DNA of 64,000 bases, from NCBI RefSeq assembly GCF_024223415.1, contig NZ_CP100500.1; one strand, written 5' to 3'. This DNA is from Escherichia coli (GTDB taxonomy: Bacteria > Pseudomonadota > Gammaproteobacteria > Enterobacterales > Enterobacteriaceae). This document shows, one piece after another, positions 6,636 through 46,067 of the stretch (position 1 is its first letter; every line of letters begins with the position of its first letter). The notes below the pieces were generated by a model. The model saw only the letters and a list, made by a program, of their open reading frames with translations, was not told the DNA's origin and ran no database searches. Position numbers and translations under genes: made by a program.

Positions 6636-8291
6636 ATGGATCGTAGACGATTTATTAAAGGTTCAATGGCTATGGCCGCCGTGTGCGGTACCAGCGGCAT
6701 TGCTTCTCTTTTTTCTCAGGCGGCATTCGCGGCAGATTCTGATATTGCCGACGGACAAACCCAGCGTTTTGACTTCTCCATTCTACAGTCAATGGCGCAC
6801 GACTTAGCGCAAACAGCGTGGCGTGGTGCGCCTCGTCCGTTACCTGACACGCTGGCGACAATGACGCCGCAGGCTTATAACAGTATTCAATACGACGCCG
6901 AAAAATCGCTCTGGCATAACGTTGAGAACCGTCAACTGGACGCTCAGTTCTTCCATATGGGAATGGGATTCCGTCGCCGCGTTCGTATGTTTTCTGTAGA
7001 TCCAGCAACACATCTGGCGCGTGAAATTCACTTTCGCCCGGAGTTGTTCAAATACAACGATGCAGGTGTTGATACCAAACAATTAGAAGGGCAAAGCGAT
7101 CTCGGCTTTGCCGGTTTTCGCGTGTTTAAAGCCCCCGAACTGGCGCGACGTGATGTAGTATCATTCCTCGGAGCGAGTTATTTCCGCGCCGTTGATGACA
7201 CATATCAATACGGTTTGTCGGCCCGCGGCCTGGCGATTGACACTTACACCGACAGTAAAGAAGAGTTCCCCGACTTTACCGCCTTCTGGTTTGATACGGT
7301 AAAACCGGGGGCAACTACCTTTACCGTTTATGCGTTGCTCGATAGCGCCAGCATTACTGGTGCCTATAAGTTCACTATCCATTGTGAGAAAAGTCAGGTG
7401 ATTATGGATGTGGAAAATCACCTGTATGCGCGCAAAGACATTAAACAGCTGGGCATTGCGCCGATGACCAGTATGTTCAGCTGCGGTACTAATGAACGTC
7501 GGATGTGCGACACCATTCATCCGCAAATTCATGACTCTGATCGTCTGTCCATGTGGCGGGGCAACGGCGAGTGGATTTGCCGTCCGCTGAATAATCCGCA
7601 AAAATTGCAGTTCAATGCTTACACCGACAACAACCCGAAAGGGTTTGGTTTATTGCAACTGGATCGTGACTTCTCCCATTATCAGGACATTATGGGCTGG
7701 TATAACAAACGCCCAAGTCTGTGGGTGGAACCGCGTAACAAGTGGGGTAAGGGCACCATCGGCCTGATGGAAATCCCAACAACGGGCGAAACGCTGGATA
7801 ACATTGTCTGCTTCTGGCAGCCAGAAAAAGCTGTAAAAGCGGGTGATGAGTTTGCATTCCAGTATCGTCTGTACTGGAGTGCGCAACCGCCTGTTCATTG
7901 CCCATTAGCGCGCGTTATGGCGACGCGTACCGGCATGGGCGGTTTCCCGGAAGGTTGGGCGCCAGGTGAACACTATCCCGAAAAATGGGCGCGTCGTTTT
8001 GCCGTCGATTTCGTTGGTGGTGATCTGAAAGCTGCCGCACCAAAAGGCATTGAGCCGGTGATTACGCTTTCCAGTGGGGAAGCGAAGCAAATCGAAATTC
8101 TCTATATTGAACCCATTGATGGTTATCGTATTCAGTTTGACTGGTATCCGACATCGGACTCCACTGATCCGGTCGATATGCGGATGTATCTGCGTTGTCA
8201 GGGCGACGCTATCAGTGAAACATGGCTGTATCAGTATTTCCCGCCAGCGCCGGATAAACGTCAGTATGTTGACGACCGCGTGATGAGTTAA
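6636..8291 (+). CDS. opgD: osmoregulated periplasmic glucan biosynthesis protein D (Tat-exported)
   Basis: 551-aa ORF; twin-arginine signal [32 protein letters not shown]; OpgG/OpgD-family body. Confidence 0.95.
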
Positions 8292-12238: not shown

Positions 12239-12907
12239 ATGCGTACCACATCATTTGCGAAAGTTGCAGCTTTATGCGGCTTGTTGGCTCTGTCTGGTTG
12301 TGCCTCTAAAATCACCCAGCCAGATAAATATTCTGGTTTTTTAAACAATTACTCTGATTTAAAAGAAACAACCTCGGCTACAGGTAAACCGGTTTTACGT
12401 TGGGTAGACCCGAGTTTTGATCAAAGCAAATATGACAGCATCGTCTGGAACCCAATCACTTATTATCCGGTACCGAAACCTTCGACCCAGGTAGGGCAGA
12501 AAGTTCTGGATAAAATTTTGAACTATACCAACACCGAAATGAAAGAAGCGATAGCGCAGCGTAAACCACTGGTTACCACCGCGGGGCCGCGTAGTCTGAT
12601 TTTCCGTGGGGCCATTACCGGTGTAGATACCAGCAAAGAAGGGCTGCAATTCTATGAAGTGGTTCCTGTTGCATTAGTGGTTGCGGGGACGCAAATGGCT
12701 ACAGGCCACCGTACCATGGATACTCGCTTGTATTTTGAAGGTGAGCTGATTGATGCAGCGACTAATAAACCGGTTATCAAAGTCGTTCGTCATGGCGAAG
12801 GTAAAGACCTGAATAACGAAAGTACGCCAATGGCTTTCGAAAATATTAAACAAGTTATTGATGACATGGCGACCGATGCCACCATGTTTGACGTTAACAA
12901 AAAGTAA
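12239..12907 (+). CDS. ydcL: lipoprotein YdcL
   Basis: 222-aa ORF; lipobox LALSGC in signal peptide. Confidence 0.9.
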   Translation: MRTTSFAKVAALCGLLALSGCASKITQPDKYSGFLNNYSDLKETTSATGKPVLRWVDPSFDQSKYDSIVWNPITYYPVPKPSTQVGQKVLDKILNYTNTEMKEAIAQRKPLVTTAGPRSLIFRGAITGVDTSKEGLQFYEVVPVALVVAGTQMATGHRTMDTRLYFEGELIDAATNKPVIKVVRHGEGKDLNNESTPMAFENIKQVIDDMATDATMFDVNKK

Positions 12908-35187: not shown

Positions 35188-36006
35188 AAGGATAAATGGC
35201 GTTCTCTGTATTTATTCGCAATTATCTGTAGGACAAATATGGAGAGCTTGATGAGTCAGAGCTAAAACAGCAATTGATTAATAAACATGTTGATTTATTC
35301 AAGAAAATGGATGTATTTTAAATATTGATTCTTAATATAACCTAATCAATAGATTATCACGTGAGAGCTGCACATTATTGGAGGGGCAGGGGAAAACACC
35401 ATTTTGGGAACAATGCATCAGGTACTCTTACCACTGAAGCAAGATCATCCGGGCACCAGGTGGTGGTGCAGTGCTTTGGAAATGGTCCCCTCGGGGGAGT
35501 TGTCATTATTTTCTATGCTATTTGCTTATGATATTCATCAGGTGAATTTAATAAATTCCTAATTTGAAATATCCACTATTAAGCCAGTGTTTAACGACGT
35601 TAAGATGGCAATGTGCAGATCATGTTATCAGGGTGGGGCGGTAGCGTATATTCCTTATACAAATCATCATTCATTTCAATGATTGTTATTAAATTATTTA
35701 TTGTTGTGAATAAAAAGACATTATGAATATTGGTTTAACTTTGCATATCAGGTTTTTTATTACTCGCTGTAATGTACGAGCCTGTCGTGAATAACGTCCA
35801 GAACCCATCCGTTGCGTTTGTGATTATTTTGTTGACTAAACAGACGCCCGTTTCTCTGAAGTAAAATCCCAGACTAAATCATCACATAACCATGACATTT
35901 TCTGATATTCCCCGGTAACGCCAGTTGTCGACTCACTTATTTCATCCGCCCGACATGTTGTACATGCAATATGTGCGGATTATTATTCATTTTCACGGAG
36001 GTTGCT

Positions 36007-38115
36007 ATGTCAACCGGATTACGTTTCACGCTGGAAGTGGACGGCCTGCCACCGGACGCGTTTGCGGTGGTCTCCTTTCATCTGAACCAGTCACTCTCTT
36101 CACTTTTTTCCCTCGACCTTTCTCTGGTCAGTCAGCAGTTTCTTTCCCTTGAATTTGCGCAGGTGCTGGACAAAATGGCCTACCTGACGGTATGGCAGGG
36201 CGATGACGTACAGCGCCGGGTGAAAGGTGTGGTGACCTGGTTTGAACTGGGGGAGAACGACAAAAACCAGATGCTGTACAGCATGAAGGTGTGCCCGCCG
36301 CTGTGGCGCACAGGGCTGCGCCAGAACTTCCGTATCTTCCAGAATGAGGACATCGAAAGCATCCTCGCTACGATATTGCAGGAAAACGGGGTGACCGAGT
36401 GGAGTCCGCTGTTCAGCGAGCCGCATCCTTCCCGTGAGTTTTGTGTCCAGTACGGCGAAACCGATTACGATTTCCTGTGCCGGATGGCGGCGGAGGAAGG
36501 CATCTTCTTTTATGAGGAGCACGCGCAAAAAAGTACCGACCAAAGCCTGGTCCTGTGCGATACCGTGCGTTATCTGCCGGAGTCCTTTGAGATCCCCTGG
36601 AATCCGAACACCCGTACCGAGGTAAGCACCCTCTGCATCAGCCAGTTTCGCTACAGCGCACAAATCCGCCCTTCTTCCGTGGTGACCAAAGACTACACCT
36701 TTAAACGCCCCGGCTGGGCCGGACGTTTTGACCAGGAAGGCCAGCACCAGGATTACCAGCGCACACAGTATGAAGTGTATGACTATCCCGGACGTTTCAA
36801 GGGCGCCCACGGGCAGAACTTTGCCCGCTGGCAGATGGACGGCTGGCGAAACAACGCAGAAGTGGCGCGCGGAACAAGCCGTTCGCCGGAGATATGGCCG
36901 GGACGGCGAATTGTGCTGACGGGGCATCCGCAGGCGAACCTGAACCGGGAATGGCAGGTGGTGGCAAGTGAACTGCACGGTGAGCAGCCGCAGGCGGTGC
37001 CGGGACGCAGTGGTTCAGGTACCTCGCTGAATAACCACTTTGCGGTAATCCCGGCAGACCGGACATGGCGGCCACAGCCGTTGCTGAAACCGCTGGTGGA
37101 CGGCCCGCAGAGCGCCGTCGTGACGGGACCGGCAGGCGAGGAAATCTTCTGTGATGAACATGGCCGCGTGCGGGTGAAATTTAACTGGGACCGCTATAAC
37201 CCGTCAAACCAGGACAGTTCATGCTGGATCCGTGTGGCACAGGCGTGGGCAGGCACCGGATTCGGTAACCTTGCGATACCGCGCGTGGGTCAGGAGGTGA
37301 TTGTGGACTTCCTCAACGGCGATCCGGACCAGCCGATCATTATGGGGCGCACCTACCACCAGGAAAACCGCACACCCGGCAGCCTGCCGGGAACAAAGAC
37401 GCAGATGACCATTCGTTCGAAAACCTATAAGGGCAGCGGGTTTAATGAACTGAAGTTTGACGATGCGACAGGGAAAGAACAGGTCTACATCCACGCGCAG
37501 AAGAACATGAACACCGAGGTGCTGAATAACCGCACCACGGATGTGATAAACAACCATGCTGAGACCATTGGCAACAATCAGATGATTGCGGTTACCAACA
37601 ATCAGATACAGACGGTGGGCGTTAACCAGATAGAGACGGTGGGCAGTAACCAGATCATTAACGTGGGTTCTGTTCAGGTGGAAACGATTGGACTTGTTCG
37701 TGCGCTGACCGTGGGCGTGGCGTACCAGACGACGGTAGGTGGCATTATGAACACTTCGGTGGCTCTGATGCAGTCCTCGCAGATCGGTTTGCATAAATCT
37801 TTGAGGGTCGGGCTGGGTTATGACGTCAAAGTCGGAAATAACGTTACCTTCACCGTTGGTAAAACGAAAAAGGATGATACCGGGCAGACCGCGATTTACT
37901 CCGCCGGTGAGCATCTGGAGCTCTGCTGTGGTAAGGCAAAGCTGGTGCTGACAAAGGACGGTCAAATTTTTCTCAACGGCACAAAAATTCATTTGCAGGG
38001 TAAGGAGCAGGTTAATGGTGACTCACTGTTGATTAACTGGAACTGTGCAGCCTCGAAATCCCCACCGAAGACCCCTGATGAAAAGCAGGATACGCCGGAT
38101 ATGAGAGAGTACTGA
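36007..38115 (+). CDS. vgrG: type VI secretion spike protein VgrG
   Basis: ATG 36007 after GGAGG; 702 aa; gp27-like N-terminus (MSTGLRFTLEVDGLPPDAFAVVSFHLNQSLSSLFSLDLSLVS) and gp5-like beta-helical repeats (VINNHAETIGNNQMIAVTNNQIQTVGVNQIETVGSNQIINVGSVQVETIG). Confidence 0.9.
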   Translation: MSTGLRFTLEVDGLPPDAFAVVSFHLNQSLSSLFSLDLSLVSQQFLSLEFAQVLDKMAYLTVWQGDDVQRRVKGVVTWFELGENDKNQMLYSMKVCPPLWRTGLRQNFRIFQNEDIESILATILQENGVTEWSPLFSEPHPSREFCVQYGETDYDFLCRMAAEEGIFFYEEHAQKSTDQSLVLCDTVRYLPESFEIPWNPNTRTEVSTLCISQFRYSAQIRPSSVVTKDYTFKRPGWAGRFDQEGQHQDYQRTQYEVYDYPGRFKGAHGQNFARWQMDGWRNNAEVARGTSRSPEIWPGRRIVLTGHPQANLNREWQVVASELHGEQPQAVPGRSGSGTSLNNHFAVIPADRTWRPQPLLKPLVDGPQSAVVTGPAGEEIFCDEHGRVRVKFNWDRYNPSNQDSSCWIRVAQAWAGTGFGNLAIPRVGQEVIVDFLNGDPDQPIIMGRTYHQENRTPGSLPGTKTQMTIRSKTYKGSGFNELKFDDATGKEQVYIHAQKNMNTEVLNNRTTDVINNHAETIGNNQMIAVTNNQIQTVGVNQIETVGSNQIINVGSVQVETIGLVRALTVGVAYQTTVGGIMNTSVALMQSSQIGLHKSLRVGLGYDVKVGNNVTFTVGKTKKDDTGQTAIYSAGEHLELCCGKAKLVLTKDGQIFLNGTKIHLQGKEQVNGDSLLINWNCAASKSPPKTPDEKQDTPDMREY

Positions 38116-38181: not shown

Positions 38182-41100
38182 ATGAGCGGAAAACCAGCGG
38201 CGCGTCAGGGAGATATGACTCAGTATGGCGGTCCCATTGTCCAGGGTTCGGCAGGTGTAAGAATTGGCGCGCCCACCGGCGTGGCGTGCTCGGTGTGTCC
38301 GGGCGGGATGACCTCGGGCAACCCGGTAAATCCGCTGCTGGGGGCGAAGGTGCTGCCCGGCGAGACGGACCTTGCGCTGCCCGGCCCGCTGCCGTTCATT
38401 CTCTCCCGCACCTACAGCAGCTACCGGACGAAGACGCCTGCGCCGGTGGGGATTTTTGGCCCCGGCTGGAAAGCGCCTTCTGATATCCGCTTACAGCTAC
38501 ATGATGACGGACTGATACTCAACGACAACGGCGGGCGGAGCATTCACTTTGAGCCGCTGCTGCCGGGGGAGGCGGTGTACAGCCGCAGCGAGTCAATGTG
38601 GCTGGTGCGCGGTGGTAAGGCAGCGCAGCCGGACGGCCACACGCTGGCGCGGCTGTGGGGGGCGCTGCCGCCGGATATCCGGTTAAGCCCGCATCTTTAC
38701 CTGGCGACCAACAGCGCACAGGGGCCGTGGTGGATACTGGGGTGGTCAGAGCGGGTGCCGGGTGCTGAGGACGTACTGCCAGCGCCGCTGCCGCCGTACC
38801 GGGTGCTTACCGGGCTGGCAGACCGTTTCGGGCGGACGCTGACGTACCGGCGTGAGGCCGCAGGCGACCTGGCCGGGGAAATCACCGGCGTGACGGACGG
38901 TGCCGGGCGTGAGTTCCGTCTGGTACTGACCACACAGGCACAGCGGGCGGAAGAGGCCCGCACCTCTTCGCTATCTTCTTCTGACAGTTCCCGCCCTCTC
39001 TCAGCCTCAGCGTTCCCCGACACACTGCCCGGTACCGAATACGGCCCCGACAGGGGTATCCGTCTTTCAGCGGTGTGGCTGATGCACGACCCGGCATACC
39101 CGGAGAATCTGCCCGGTGCGCCACTGGCGCGGTACACGTATACGGAAGCCGGTGAACTGCTGGCGGTATATGACCGCAGCAATACGCAGGTGCGCGCTTT
39201 CACGTATGACGCGCAGCACCCGGGCCGGATGGTGGCGCACCGTTACGCGGGAAGGCCGGAGATGCGCTACCGCTACGACGATACCGGGCGGGTGGTGGAG
39301 CAGCTGAACCCGGCAGGCCTGAGTTACCGCTACCAGTATGAGCAGGACCGCATCACCGTCACGGATAGCCTGAACCGGCGTGAGGTGCTGCATACAGAAG
39401 GCGGGGCCGGGCTGAAGCGGGTGGTGAAAAAAGAACTGGCGGACGGCAGCGTCACGCACAGCGGGTATGACGCGGCAGGAAGGCTCACGGCGCAGACGGA
39501 CGCGGCGGGACGGCGGACAGAGTACGGTCTGAATGTGGTGTCCGGCGATATCACGGACATCACCACACCGGACGGGCGGGAGACGAAATTTTACTATAAC
39601 GACGGGAACCAGCTGACGGCGGTGGTGTCCCCGGACGGGCTGGAGAGCCGCCGGGCATATGATGAACCGGGCAGGCTGGTATCGGAGACATCGCGCAGCG
39701 GGGAGACAGTACGCTACCGCTACGATGATGCGTACAGTGAGTTACCGGCGACGACAACAGATGCGACGGGCAGCACCCGGCAGATGACCTGGAGCCGCTA
39801 CGGTCAGTTGCTGGCGTTCACCGACTGCTCGGGCTACCAGACCCGCTATGAATACGACCGCTTCGGCCAGATGACGGCGGTCCACCGCGAGGAAGGCATC
39901 AGCCTTTACCGCCGCTATGACAACCGTGGCCGGTTAATCTCGGTGAAAGACGCACAGGGCCATGAAACGCGGTATGAGTACAACGCCGCAGGCGACCTGA
40001 CTGCCGTCATTACCCCGGACGGCAACCGGAGCGAGACACAGTACGATGCGTGGGGAAAGGCGGTCAGCACCACGCAGGGCGGGCTGACGCGCAGTATGGA
40101 GTACGATGCTGCCGGACGTGTCATCAGCCTGACCAACGAGAACGGCAGCCGGAGTGAGTTTACCTACGATGCGCTGGACCGCCTGGTACAGCAGGGCGGC
40201 TTTGACGGGCGGACGCAGCGTTACCGTTATGACCTGACCGGAAAACTCACGCAGAGTGAAGATGAGGGGCTTGTCATCCTCTGGTACTACGATGAATCGG
40301 ACCGTATCACTCACCGCACGGTGAACGGCGAACCGGCAGAGCAGTGGCAGTATGATGGCCACGGCTGGCTGAGAGAAATCAGCCACCTGAGCGAAGGCCA
40401 CCGTGTTGCCGTCCACTATGGCTATGACGATAAAGGCCGCCTGACCGGCGAACGCCAGACGGTGGAGAACCCGGAGACGGGGGAACTGCTGTGGCAGCAT
40501 GAGACGAAACACGCATACAACGAGCAGGGGCTGGCAAACCGCGTCACGCCGGACAGCCTGCCGCCGGTGGAGTGGCTGACGTATGGCAGCGGTTACCTGG
40601 CGGGAATGAAGCTGGGCGGGACGCCGCTGGTCGAGTATACGCGGGACAGGCTGCACCGGGAGACGGTGCGCAGCTTCGGCAATAATGCATATGAACTGAC
40701 CAGCACTTACACCCCCGCAGGCCAGTTACAGAGCCAGCACCTGAACAGCCTGGTGTATGACCGTGACTACGGGTGGAATGACAACGGCGACCTGGTGCGC
40801 ATCAGCGGTCCGCGACAGACGCGGGAATACGGCTACAGCGCCACGGGCAGGCTGGAGAGTGTGCGCACCCTCGCACCGGACCTGGACATCCGCATCCCGT
40901 ATGCCACGGACCCGGCGGGCAACCGGCTGCCGGACCCGGAGCTGCACCCGGACAGTACACTCACAGTGTGGCCGGATAACCGAATCACCGAAGACGCGCA
41001 CTACCTGTACCGTTACGATGAATACGGCAGGCTGACGGAGAAGACGGACCGCATCCCGACGGGTGTGATACGGACGGACGACGAGCGGACCCACCACTAC

Positions 41101-42387
41101 CACTACGACAGCCAGCACCGCCTGGTGTTCTACACGCGGATACAGCATGAGGAGCCACTGGTCGAGAGCCGCTACCTCTACGACCCGCTGGGACGGCGAA
41201 TGGCAAAACGGGTCTGGCGGCGGGAGCGTGACCTGACGGGGTGGATGTCGCTGTCGCGTAAACCGGAGGAGACATGGTACGGGTGGGACGGCGACAGGCT
41301 GACGACGGTGCAGACTGACACCACACGTATCCAGACGGTCTACCAGCCGGGGAGCTTCACGCCGCTCATCCGTATCGAGACAGAGAACGGCGAACGGGAG
41401 AAAATGCAGCGCCGCAGCCTGGCGGAGAAGCTGCAGCAGGAAGGAAGTGAGGACGGTCACGGTGTGGTGTTCCCGGCTGAGCTGGTGAGGATGCTGGACA
41501 GGCTGGAGGAAGAAATCCGGGCAAACTGCGTGAGCAGTGAAAGCCGCCAGTGGCTTGCGCAGTGCGGGCTGACGGTGGAGCGGCTGGCGGCACAGATAGA
41601 GCCGGTTTATTTGCCTGAGCGAAAAATACATCTTTATCACTGTGACCACCGGGGCCTGCCGCTGGCGCTTATCAGTGAAGACGGCAATACGGCGTGGCGC
41701 GGGGAGTATGATGAATGGGGCAACCAGCTTAATGAAGAGAACCCGTATTACCTGCACCAGCCATACCGTCTGCCGGGGCAGCAGCATGATGAGGAATCAG
41801 GGCTGTACTATAACCGGAACCGGTACTATGACCCGCTACAGGGGAGGTATATTACACAAGACCCCATTGGGCTGGAGGGGGGATGGAACCTGTACCAATA
41901 TCCGCTGAATCCAGTGCAACACGTTGATCCATTAGGGCTTAGTACTATGATAATAGGTAACGGCCCCGTTCCTGATAATCCTTTTGGGCATGCTGCGGCG
42001 GCAAATCGATATGGATTAATGAGTTCGGGAACTGGGGATGAGATGGGAGCCTCTGTCTCTGATTATTTTAAAAAGATGCAACCCCGCAGAGATACCTGGA
42101 TTTGGATAATAGATACAACAGATGAAGAAGAACAATGTATGATGAATAAGGCAATAGACCTTAATAAAAAACTAAAAACTATTAACCTCGGGCCTCTTCC
42201 TGTTTTAAATAATTGTTTTAGCCGAACGAACATGATTTTTGAGGCGTGCGGGTTTAACAACCCCTCTATGAATACAAATGCGCCTATAAGCCTACAAGTG
42301 CTCGGTGAGCTTTATGGATATCAAAGATATATTATGCCTAAAGGTCCTTTCACTGGATTCCCATTTGAATTTCAAGAGGTAAAGTAA
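38182..42387 (+). CDS. rhsE: PAAR-domain Rhs polymorphic toxin (T6SS effector), 1401 aa
   Basis: N-terminal [31 protein letters not shown] (PAAR motif); many YD repeats ([30 protein letters not shown]...); Rhs core terminating at PxxxxDPLGL (ends 41940); gene symbol assigned by synteny only. Confidence 0.9.
41941..42387 (+). other. Rhs C-terminal variable toxin domain (about 148 aa), family not recognised
   Basis: Begins immediately after DPLGL; base composition switches from GC-rich core to AT-rich; sequence [25 protein letters not shown]...[19 protein letters not shown]... has no motif I can assign. Confidence 0.75.
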
Positions 42388-42786
42388 ATGGAAATGCTTG
42401 GGAAGATATTAGTGATAATTATTTCCATGATAATTATATCTTGTGATTATTATAATGCTGGCATGGACTATCAAGATAATATAGCCCTCGAGCAAGTCGT
42501 AACATGGGATTCTGATAATATATTCACACCTAATATCTTTGAACATAATGGAAGATGTTTTATGAAGAAAAATGAAACATGGATGTTATTAAATGGAGAT
42601 GCAACACCAAACATTAGAACAATGAGCAATAAGAAAATAGAATGCCTGGAGAAGAGTGAAGTAGAATGGGCTAGTAGGGTTTGCGACAGTATCACAGACA
42701 AGGAAAGGGAAAATCTGAAGGCATTAATATGTAGCAAACCAGCTAAATCAGTTAATACAGGCAAAAGACCAGCGTTAGGATATTGA
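42388..42786 (+). CDS. probable Rhs immunity protein (132 aa, lipoprotein-like)
   Basis: ATG directly abuts rhs stop (TAA-ATG); AT-rich; N-terminal hydrophobic stretch ending in lipobox-like IISC. Confidence 0.7.
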   Translation: MEMLGKILVIIISMIIISCDYYNAGMDYQDNIALEQVVTWDSDNIFTPNIFEHNGRCFMKKNETWMLLNGDATPNIRTMSNKKIECLEKSEVEWASRVCDSITDKERENLKALICSKPAKSVNTGKRPALGY

Positions 42787-43229
42787 AACCGGCACTGCAC
42801 TCTATCACTATTACAATATTCTGAGTGACTAGAGCAACTGCTCCGCCATCCGGGCTAGCAGTATGACGACGAATCCGAACTGCACTACAACTGGCACCGG
42901 TACTACAATCCGGGACAGGGACCAGGGAAAGATCACGGTGTGCCGTAGGCACAAAGATGCAAAACGGGACGTTTTGCATGTAATAAGCATAAGCTTGTGA
43001 AGAGATGGTGGCAGGCCCACCGGGATCTGCTGTCGGAAGTCGGTCCCAAACAACCCCGGCTGCTGTGGTAAAGAGCCAAGGTAGTGAGCGCAGGGGGAAC
43101 GATCAGACGAGATCTGATCCTGTGTGAGATACAGTGAGATGAGTAAACCCGAACCTGTGTTGAAACGTCGTTAGTCCTAAGTGACATCAAAACCGGAGGT
43201 TTCGTGATACCGCCTGGATTAATTTACGG

Positions 43230-44725
43230 GTGAATTCCGAATGCTGCGTAAATGGTGTCCGGCGTATAGCAGGCATGACGCTGTATCAGGCTCTTTGCAG
43301 GAACTACGGGAACCAGTCGTCGCAATGTCAAGAGAGAAATACAAATAACCGAAATTATGAGTATGAGAGTATCGATGTGCGAAACCGGGGCAGAGCTGTT
43401 CGTAGTAGTGAGGAAGCGTTTGTAATGAATGTGGAGCGAAGGGGCAACGTCGGGCAGTCTGCATCACAGCCCAACTGTAAACAGGAGGAGGCTGCGGGTG
43501 AACAGACAAAACCGTTTCAGGTCAGTAAATTGCATGTGGTGGAAGCGTACCGTCGGGTAAAGGCGAATGCCGGAGCTGCCGGAGTGGATAACCAGACGCT
43601 GAAAGATTTTGAGCGGGATCTGAAAGGAAATCTGTACAAAATCTGGAACAGGTTATCGTCGGGAAGCTGGATGCCGCCGCCAGTGCGTGCGGTGGAAATT
43701 CCGAAGAAGGATGGCAGTAAAAGGCTTTTAGGAATACCGACAGTAAGCGATCGAATAGCGCAGATGACGGTGCTGGTAACGTTTGAACCATTAGTGGAGC
43801 GTTATTTCCTGAATGATTCATACGGATACCGGCATGGAAAATCAGCGCTGGATGCAATAGCAGTTACCAGAAAACGTTGCTGGCAATACGACTGGTGTCT
43901 TGAGTTTGATATTAAAGGGTTATTCGATAATATCCCCCACGATTTATTACTCAGGGCAGTGGATAAACATTGCGCGGATAAATGGGTAAGACTGTATATT
44001 CGCAGGTGGCTGACAGCGCCGGTGCAGATGCCGGATGGAACACTGAAGGAAAGAAATAAAGGTACGCCACAGGGTGGAGTCATCAGTCCGGTACTGGCGA
44101 ATTTATTTCTGCACTATGTGTTTGATAAATGGCTGTCGTTACATTATCCGGAAATTCCCTGGTGTCGTTATGCAGATGATGGATTAATTCATTGTGGCAG
44201 TAAACAACAGGCAGAGGAATTACTGAATAAACTGGCAAAACGTTTTCAGGAATGTGGACTGGAATTACATCCGGAGAAAACGAAAATAGTTTACTGCAAA
44301 GACAGCTAACGACAGGCGAACCACGAAACAGTGCAGTTTGATTTTCTGGGTTATACGTTCAGGGCGAGAAGAGCACGTAATCAGCGAAGTGGAAATCTCT
44401 TTACGAGTTTCAGTCCGGCGGTGAGTAACAGTGCGCAGAAAGGCATGATCGAAAAACTCAGGAAACTGCGGCTCAGACGCAGGGTGGAGATGAGTCTCGA
44501 AGATATTGCGAAAAGGCTGAATCCGATGATATCGGGGTGGCTGAATTATTACGCGAAATACCACAAAGATATATTAATCTGACGCTGATTGCGTGGGCGA
44601 GAAAGAAATATAAAACCCTGCGGTATAGAAAGACGAAGGCGTGTCAGCTAATGGAAAGGCTGTCAAAAGAGAAGCCGGAGTTGTTTGCCCACTGGAATGC
44701 AGGACCGGAAAGCGCGTTTGCCTGA
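43230..44725 (+). pseudogene. group II intron-encoded reverse transcriptase/maturase, split over three frames
   Basis: 43230-44309 has RT motifs (RLLGIPTVSDRIAQMTVL, PQGGVISPVLANLFLHYV, CRYADDGLIHC); maturase continues in 44331-44582 (FDFLGYTFRARRARNQRSG...GWLNYYAKYH) and 44537-44725 (IAWARKKYKTL...LFAHW), so there are at least two frame disruptions. Confidence 0.75.
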
Positions 44726-44728
44726 CGG

Positions 44729-44762
44729 GAGCCGTATGAAGCGAGAGTTTCACGTACGGTTC
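44729..44762 (+). ncRNA. group II intron ribozyme domain V
   Basis: GAGCCGTATGAAGCGAGAGTTTCACGTACGGTTC fits the domain V consensus (GAGCCGUAUG...ACGUACGGUUC) with catalytic AGC triad. Confidence 0.8.
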
Positions 44763-44945
44763 TGCGAGAGGCTGTCGGGGAGGTTCCGGTGGCCTACTCA
44801 CTTAACGCTGCTTTTTTGTACTAAATAATTCGCATTTTATGTTTAAAAATTGAGATATTCCCCATTACCTAAAGCTGTTTTTTATTGCTTATACATGATC
44901 AAATACTCCTTACATAATTAAGGAGAACAAAATGGAATTAAAAAA

Positions 44946-46067
44946 TTGATGGAACATATTTCTGTTATCCCCGATTACAGACAAGCCTGGAAAGTGGAAC
45001 ATAAATTATCGGATATTCTACTGTTGACTATTTGTGCCGTTATTTCTGGTGCAGAAGGTTGGGAAGATATAGAGGATTTTGGGGAAACACATCTCGATTT
45101 TTTGAAGCAATATGGTGATTTTGAAAATGGTATTCCTGTTCACGATACCATTGCCAGAGTTGTATCCTGTATCAGTCCTGCAAAATTTCACGAGTGCTTT
45201 ATTAACTGGATGCGTGACTGCCATTCTTCAGATGATAAAGACGTCATTGCAATTGATGGAATAACGCTCCGGCACTCTTATGATAAGAGTCGTCGCAGGG
45301 GAGCGATTCATGTCATTAGTGCGTTCTCAACAATGCACAGTCTGGTCCTCGGACAGATCAGGACGGATGAGAAATCTAATGAGATTACAGCTATTCCTGA
45401 ACTTCTTAACATGATGGATATTAAAGGAAAAATCATCACAACTGATGCGATGGGTTGCCAGAAAGATATTGCAGAAAAGATACAAAAACAGGGAGGGGAT
45501 TATTTATTCGCTGTAAAGGGAAATCAGGGGCGACTAAATAAAGCCTTTGAGGAAAAATTCCCGCTGAAAGAATTAAATAATCCAGAGCATGACAGTTACG
45601 CAATCAGTGAAAAGAGTCACGGCAGAGAAGAAATCCGTCTTCATATTGTTTACGATGTCCCTGATGAACTTATTGATTTCACGTTTGAATGGAAAGGGCT
45701 GAAGAAATTATGCGTGGCAGTCTCCTTTCGGTCCATAATAGCAGAACAAAAGAAAGAGCCAAAAATGACGGTCAGATATTATATCAGTTCTGCTGATTTA
45801 ACCGCAGAGAAGTTCGCCACAGCAATCCGAAACCACTGGCACGTGGAGAATAAGCTGCACTGGCGTCTGGACGTGGTAATGAATGAAGACGACTGCAAAA
45901 TAAGAAGAGGAAATGCAGCAGAATTATTTTCAGGGATACGGCACATTGCTATTAATATTTTGACGAATGATAAGGTATTCAAGGCAGGGTTAAGACGTAA
46001 GATGCGAAAAGCAGCCATGGACAGAAACTATCTGGCGTCAGTCCTTGCGGGGAGCGGGCTTTCGTAA
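44946..46067 (+). CDS. ydcC: H-repeat-associated ISAs1-family transposase
   Basis: 373-aa ORF ([45 protein letters not shown]...) typical of H-rpt/ISAs1 transposases found in Rhs elements; start codon (TTG 44946 or ATG 44949) uncertain. Confidence 0.85.

Follow-up and report, generated by a model that had tools for sequence, protein, structure and literature searches.

The stretch of DNA analysed here, called the window, comprises 64 kb of an Escherichia coli chromosome and covers an rhsE-type island located between yncH and ydcC. In the identical stretch of strain 2013C-4282, the RefSeq annotation gives the order yncG, yncH, vgrG, 'RHS element core protein', 'hypothetical protein' (WP_000425544.1), the group II intron gene ltrA and an ISAs1 transposase gene. 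The hypothetical protein corresponds to the 132-aa ORF on which we focused. The gene upstream of it displays all the hallmarks of an Rhs effector, namely a neighbouring vgrG, an Rhs core, and a motif of the PxxxxDPxGL type ahead of the tip (Table 1). Rhs proteins are cleaved at DPxGL. VgrG, a type VI secretion system (T6SS) spike protein, would carry the Rhs effector; the T6SS core genes lie outside the 64-kb window. The Rhs core has a GC content of 63%, whereas that of the tip is 39.5% and that of the 132-aa ORF is 34%, a drop that fits an exchangeable tip/immunity cassette. A scan for promoters and terminators at the rhs/ORF junction gave nothing better than shuffled sequence, and no internal promoter or terminator was retained. 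A match to OCRE at the end of the Rhs core was discarded as noise.

Table 1 Features of the vgrG-rhs locus (positions in the window)
Feature	Position	Strand	Basis or remark
vgrG	35971..38115	+	NCBIfam TIGR03361 VI_Rhs_Vgr, E 4.7e-189; RefSeq name in the identical locus 'type VI secretion system tip protein VgrG'
rhs ORF, whole	38182..42387	+	TAA stop at 42385..42387
Rhs core (N-terminal region and YD-repeat shell)	38182..41940	+	NCBIfam NF041261 RHS_core, first 200 aa, E 1e-130; RefSeq 'RHS element core protein'
DPLGL codons, end of the Rhs core self-cleavage motif	41926..41940	+	Read from the translation
Toxin tip, 148 aa and stop codon	41941..42387	+	Predicted permuted papain-like/NlpC-P60 His/Cys enzyme
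Tip His17 codon	41989..41991	+	
Tip Cys92 codon	42214..42216	+	
Shine-Dalgarno-like AGAGG	42375..42379	+	Within the rhs 3' end, 8 nt ahead of the ATG; from sequence
Immunity candidate ORF, 132 aa	42388..42786	+	ATG directly abuts the rhs TAA; opens ATG GAA ATG
Predicted lipoprotein signal peptide, Met1 to Cys19	42388..42444	+	PS51257; lipobox kept in 10/11 homologues
Lipobox IISC	42433..42444	+	Putative lipid-modified Cys19 codon 42442..42444
Mature immunity domain, 113 aa and stop codon	42445..42786	+	Alignments; opens at Asp+2 (CDYYNAG)

The region immediately downstream of the ORF (42787..44830) contains a degenerate orphan fragment of an rhs core end (frame ...QYDDESELHYNWHRYYNPGQG, about 42851..42935), which is broken by a group II intron (Rfam RF01999 at 43007..43122 and RF00029 at 44727..44802). 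The ltrA frame of this intron exhibits an in-frame stop and a frameshift in the window; the 96%-identical copy of strain 2013C-4282 is an intact 441-aa gene. The intron is followed by an ISAs1-family (H-repeat, ydcC-like) transposase gene (44946..46067), matching the annotated reference locus.

The original prediction described an ORF that opens at the ATG straight after the rhs stop codon and encodes a short hydrophobic N-terminus ending in a lipobox-like IISC, followed by a hydrophilic body with several cysteines, and each of these features was found. The N-terminus of the product, MEMLGKILVIIISMIIISC-DYYNAG, is composed of the segment MEMLGK, with Lys6 in the n-region, the hydrophobic core ILVIIISMI, whose Kyte-Doolittle mean over 11 residues reaches 2.9, and the lipobox IISC with Cys19. 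With a GRAVY of -0.67, the mature part is hydrophilic; it contains four further cysteines, at positions 57, 86, 99, and 115 of the precursor. The lipoprotein call was made on the basis of PROSITE PS51257 (positive n-region, hydrophobic core, lipobox, and Cys at positions 15-35), of the published lipobox consensus [LVI][ASTVI][GAS]C, and of the conservation across homologues. The protein matches PS51257 whether translation starts at Met1 or at Met3. When all six frames of the window were considered, 239 ORFs reached 60 aa or more, of which only two match this pattern, and this rarity places the signal of the ORF well above chance. The other match, 12239..12907 (MRTTSFAKVAALCGLLALSGC..., LALSGC), is an obvious lipoprotein and presumably a housekeeping one.

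The residue at position +2 after Cys19 is an aspartate (CDYY). In E. coli and other Enterobacteriaceae, an Asp following the lipidated Cys is a signal for retention in the inner membrane, by avoidance of the Lol pathway. As this +2 rule is well established, the product of the ORF, which is very probably a lipid-anchored lipoprotein facing the periplasm, is probably kept at the inner membrane.

The family of the immunity candidate is narrow. A search of 5.8 billion proteins yielded 19 clusters, none of which has a Pfam domain, and scans of Pfam and NCBIfam assigned the E. coli protein to no family, the weak matches to NANM and YjhT being noise. The homologues originate from Salmonella enterica (L009), Citrobacter farmeri (L017), and metagenome contigs (L012, L013, L014, L015/16, L018, and L019), and one member of the family is named 'Lipoprotein' by the automatic annotation of UniProt. 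After correction of two miscalled starts, 10 of 11 homologues match PS51257, and the exception is truncated and lacks an intact N-terminus. The signal peptides themselves diverge (MRGIKKLILFLSAS-LVAC, MKKEVSVLITSLS-LVSC, and MKLNNFSVSMVFIIT-ITGC), with a lipobox that still fits the consensus given above. In all 11 homologues, the Cys is followed by D-Y-Y-[NY]-[AS]-[AG], and the four cysteines of the mature part are kept in every full-length homologue, down to 37% identity of the mature part. Such a variable signal sequence combined with conserved features points to a functional lipoprotein signal. The lipoprotein reading of the original prediction is thus supported at the sequence level, as a K/R in the n-region, a hydrophobic core, and a lipobox are common to 10/11 homologues even though the signal sequence drifts. 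Disulfides form in the periplasm, and the four conserved cysteines suggest that the mature domain probably contains two of them.

In all eight pairs that could be recovered, the immunity gene either touches or overlaps the stop codon of a homologous toxin gene or is only a few nucleotides away from it: the junction is abutting or overlapping in L009, L013, L017, L012, and L015, the gap is 6 nt in L019, and it is at most a few nt in L018. The identity to the E. coli pair ranges from 54 to 93% for the toxins and from 37 to 92% for the immunity proteins. The two identities are highly correlated (Pearson r = 0.97; eight pairs, 28 non-independent comparisons). The ORF therefore appears to encode the cognate immunity protein of the Rhs tip, which it would neutralise. 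A toxin-(GGGGS)6-immunity fusion was modelled with AF2 from eight paired sequences, giving a pLDDT of 61.5 and a pTM of 0.45, a quality at which the interface is not readable. When the immunity domain of this poor model was compared with the PDB using Foldseek, nothing was obtained below an E value of 0.7.

With regard to the tip, no significant match was found at the sequence level in Pfam, NCBIfam or the PDB, and the matches of the tip profile to exportin-T and protein A repeats in the PDB are spurious. When 1.84 billion cluster representatives were searched with a profile, relatives in 334 clusters at 50% identity were retrieved. Nearly all of these relatives form the C-terminal end of a protein, and the majority follow a DPxG motif, which indicates that they are Rhs/YD tips as well. 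In an alignment of 23 members (27-62% identity), ten residues are invariant, including His17 and Cys92. The His precedes the Cys, which is the permuted arrangement, with a spacing of 75 residues in the E. coli tip and of 68-91 residues across the family. The structural matches to the AF2 model of the tip are YiiX and TseH, both permuted papain-like/NlpC-P60 enzymes, and after them DUF4105/Lnb domains, with lower-scoring matches to PPPDE, CLN5, vasohibin, and PLAAT4. In a Foldseek search against AFDB50, Rhs C-termini come first, followed by many proteins annotated as DUF4105/'Lnb N-terminal periplasmic domain' and then by a YaeF/YiiX C92 enzyme. The DUF4105/Lnb domains are the nearest structural neighbours of the tip other than Rhs proteins in this database (E 2e-5 to 1e-3). 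The sole Pfam signal in the family is a weak match to Lnb_N (PF13387) in 3 of the 23 relatives (E about 0.03); the E. coli tip itself shows no match to PF13387 at E <= 10, and DUF6695, the Pfam family of TseH, matches neither the tip nor any of the 23 relatives. Judging from its predicted structure, the tip would belong to the circularly permuted NlpC/P60 (papain-like) enzymes and use His17 and Cys92 as its dyad. Two other cysteines of the tip, Cys66 and Cys103, are invariant in the E. coli-like subfamily, an invariance that does not extend to the wider family; a disulfide between them could stabilise the toxin after its arrival in the periplasm.

A close counterpart of the pair, Tox-Act1/Imm-Act1, was described in Salmonella by Nicastro et al. 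(PLoS Biol 2026). Tox-Act1, a toxin of the T6SS, has a permuted NlpC/P60 core without any Pfam hit and is linked by HHpred to DUF4105 and TseH. Its toxicity is confined to the periplasm, where it acts as a phospholipase that cleaves PG and PE; its clade, a sister group of DUF4105/Lnb, includes many Rhs C-termini (PMC12994826). The tip resembles it in its His...Cys permuted core, in the lack of a Pfam hit, in its links to DUF4105 and TseH, and in its position at the end of an Rhs protein, where Tox-Act1, too, is often found. These properties of the tip agree closely with the description of Tox-Act1. The catalytic motifs are TTGHGAAF and GNNCTTHS in Tox-Act1, as read from mutagenesis primers, versus NPFGHAAA and LNNCFSRT in the tip; at this motif level, which is the only level of the comparison, GHGA (found in some close relatives of the tip) and NNC-x-[ST] are common to Tox-Act1 and the tip family. 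The His-Cys spacing differs, being 108 residues in Tox-Act1 versus 75 in the tip. The immunity proteins also differ: Imm-Act1 possesses a pair of transmembrane helices (PMC12994826) and resides at the inner membrane, whereas the candidate described here is a lipoprotein with a soluble Cys-rich domain. No close homologue of the tip was found by accession in the published Tox-Act1 list, and no Tox-Act1 candidate was found with a chimeric peptide derived from the published primers. A 35-nt primer sequence of Tox-Act1 had no match in the E. coli genomes, and a 24-nt pattern had none in the metagenome contigs. Given that kinship with Tox-Act1 was judged by the primer-derived motifs alone, we filed the modelled tip under the permuted NlpC/P60 superfamily. 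The Rhs entries in the Salmonella 'TseH-list' (PMC12994826) belong to different cassettes, whose immunity genes are of the Imm58 or Imm-NTF2-2 type.

TseH of the TseH/TsiH pair of Vibrio cholerae (PDB 6v98), which is also a T6SS effector toxic only in the periplasm (PMC4453574), exhibits 6% identity with the tip in the structural alignment, and is a stand-alone 223-aa cargo effector with DUF6695 rather than an Rhs C-terminus. The DUF4105/Lnb domains (PF13387), known from the Bacteroides lipoprotein N-acyltransferase (cited in PMC12994826), are periplasmic permuted NlpC/P60 domains that handle acyl groups. However, Lnb is a housekeeping enzyme and not a toxin, and its match to the tip family lies below Pfam significance.

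If the toxin family acts on the envelope, its immunity genes are expected to encode exported or membrane proteins whatever their fold. We therefore considered the genes downstream of distant tip relatives, using seven genome loci (36-55% identity to the query) and three loci from representative proteins. In all ten, the downstream ORF exhibits an N-terminal signal peptide, a lipobox or a membrane segment, compared with 13 of the 48 non-overlapping ORFs of the window under the same hydropathy criterion, which is crude and was applied here to few independent immunity families. Three of the downstream proteins are ankyrin-repeat proteins with a signal peptide or a lipobox (L002, L007, with '...PISGC', and L020), five are small, with a length of about 80 aa, and contain two membrane helices (L003, L005, L006, L008, and L022), and the remaining two carry a signal or anchor at the N-terminus (L004 and L021). 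These proteins form about four unrelated families in addition to the E. coli one, and the two-helix proteins recall Imm-Act1 by their helix count. The small two-helix ORF of L022 (about 7620..7850; MNKTIVTTAVLWALG...) immediately follows the gene of an Rhs-like protein of 2374 aa that carries this toxin domain; it has no gene call in the public record and is homologous to the membrane ORFs of L003, L005, L006, and L008.

The original prediction had also suggested that the tip targets the envelope. The predicted fold class of the tip, shared with TseH and Tox-Act1, the two T6SS toxins of this group that have been tested and whose toxicity is restricted to the periplasm, and the exported or membrane nature of all ten downstream proteins argue in favour of this suggestion, and we infer from them a periplasmic site of action. 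The analysis also refines the suggestion, as an inner-membrane lipid appears a likelier target than the cell wall.

Based on these observations, the following mechanism can be proposed. VgrG and the Rhs protein would be fired by the T6SS, and the tip would be freed after DPLGL and would reach the periplasm of the target cell. Acting from the periplasm, the His17/Cys92 dyad would then cleave or transfer membrane-lipid acyl chains, which would result in failure of the envelope; an attack on lipid acyl chains is proposed because it has been shown for Tox-Act1. The immunity protein would be exported by the Sec pathway, lipidated on Cys19, and cleaved by signal peptidase II. It would be held by Asp+2 on the periplasmic face of the inner membrane, where its 113-aa domain would bind and block the toxin arriving from sister cells. 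We consider the overall picture, that of a lipoprotein immunity protein paired with a periplasm-acting permuted NlpC/P60 Rhs tip, to be likely. The narrower proposal that the substrate is specifically a membrane lipid is about evenly balanced.

The alternative that survives best concerns the substrate. The tip might be a peptidoglycan amidase or endopeptidase, in which case the export of the immunity protein and the periplasmic action of the toxin would be unchanged. Canonical NlpC/P60 effectors of the T6SS attack peptidoglycan, and TseH was first described in this way. Nevertheless, this possibility is unlikely, as the His-before-Cys order found in the tip is associated with lipid substrates and TseH itself was reported to exhibit phospholipase activity (PMC12994826). 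Furthermore, the nearest AFDB neighbours outside the tip family are DUF4105/Lnb domains, and an immunity protein retained at the inner membrane, together with integral-membrane immunity proteins in relatives, points to the membrane rather than to the sacculus. A further possibility, which appears distinctly improbable, is that the tip, as a member of a large clade of Rhs-borne permuted NlpC/P60 enzymes not yet covered by a family model, acts on the acylated N-terminus of lipoproteins at the inner membrane and that the immunity protein serves as a pseudo-substrate, its lipidated C-D-Y-Y docking in the acyl pocket. The substrate in this proposal is suggested by the fact that the nearest structural neighbours are Lnb lipoprotein N-acyltransferase domains, and the pseudo-substrate role by the residues beside the lipidated Cys, which are among the most conserved of the protein. 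Lipoproteins have also been raised as possible targets of Tox-Act1 (PMC12994826).

Returning to the membrane-lipid reading and its lipoprotein immunity, the N-terminus of the immunity protein could in principle be an uncleaved anchor or a substrate of signal peptidase I, and the protein would then face the periplasm without a lipid. The lipobox has a Ser at -1 and an Ile at -3, residues that are allowed in E. coli lipoboxes but are rarer than the canonical L-A-G-C. However, the Cys is invariant and always lies in a consensus lipobox at positions 17-19 while the residues preceding it change (LVAC, LVSC, ITGC, and IISC), every complete homologue matches PS51257, and a plain anchor would not need a conserved lipobox Cys. 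This makes a lipid-free anchor very unlikely.

The ORF could also be a passenger, or a release lipoprotein of the colicin type, with the immunity protein encoded elsewhere. Colicin operons indeed carry small lipoproteins 3' of the toxin gene. In contrast with such a role, no gene other than the ORF separates the toxin stop codon from the next module, and the ORF accompanies the toxin in 8/8 pairs from several genera and co-diverges with it. Cassettes consisting of an orphan tip and this ORF also occur in arrays (L016), which is the usual behaviour of toxin/immunity pairs. We regard a passenger role as highly improbable, and the colicin-type lysis lipoprotein is set aside in view of size, fold, and context: the mature protein has 113 residues and a conserved Cys-rich fold versus roughly 30 residues for colicin lysis proteins, and a T6SS requires no lysis. 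Finally, nucleases and other toxins of the cytoplasm are numerous among Rhs C-termini (PMC12994826), but a lipobox present by chance in a cytoplasmic immunity protein, with a tip acting in the cytoplasm like most Rhs tips, is barely credible in view of the lipobox, Asp+2, and four-Cys pattern kept at 37% identity, of the rarity of PS51257 in the window, and of the fold class of the tip and the exported immunity candidates of its family.

Lipoprotein immunity has precedents. In Tle1/Tli1 and other lipase pairs of the E. coli T6SS, a lipoprotein immunity gene is located just downstream of an effector acting on membrane lipids (bioRxiv 10.1101/2024.03.05.583533). Unlike the tip, the Tle toxins belong to the alpha/beta-hydrolases, display a GxSxG motif, and travel as VgrG cargo, and Tli1 is an outer-membrane lipoprotein with DUF2931 (same reference), so that neither sequence nor fold relates them to the present pair. 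Another case is EDL933_2188, the immunity candidate of RhsE in EHEC EDL933, which is likewise a small ORF downstream of rhs in the same rhsE locus type, and for which LipoP predicted a lipoprotein signal, leading its authors to the same inference (PMC7216683). In contrast, EDL933_2188 has 61 aa and lies beside a different tip, and there were no O157 genomes in a sample of 60 of the 562 genomes carrying the present immunity gene. Set apart by its length, tip, and genome sample, it probably does not belong to the same family.

The immunity gene is present in 562 of 5,426 complete E. coli genomes (about 10%), where it is always annotated as 'hypothetical' and lies beside a tip without family assignment. 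The predictions made here thus give a concrete, testable function to a common competition module of E. coli. Exported lipoprotein immunity to periplasm-acting T6SS toxins was already known, and the toxin superfamily was characterised between 2015 and 2026. What is new is the predicted assignment of this common E. coli tip to the permuted NlpC/P60 superfamily, the unnamed immunity family with its strikingly conserved and putatively lipidated N-terminus, and the family-wide pairing of the tip with envelope-located immunity candidates. The consistent pairing of the tip superfamily with exported or membrane immunity proteins of several unrelated kinds supports an envelope target throughout the family. 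PAAR-Rhs effectors are usually linked to cytoplasm-acting toxins (PMC12994826), and the present one is probably a further example working in the periplasm and not in the cytoplasm.

Two loci of homologues display additional modules. In Salmonella (L009, 1035..3628), a further Rhs fragment of 714 aa lies behind the immunity gene, together with a 150-aa ORF whose N-terminus contains a hydrophobic segment, and this stretch is an array of orphan modules. In a sediment contig (L016, 3..1056), the tip/immunity cassette is itself an orphan module, located behind another Rhs tip and the membrane protein of that tip. The preceding tip exhibits a different His...Cys signature, HCYVKF ... FNCCHCAEQ, with an LRAT-like NC-x-H motif. 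The protein encoded after it has 132 aa and several membrane helices, and this preceding tip may represent another permuted papain-like domain directed at membranes.
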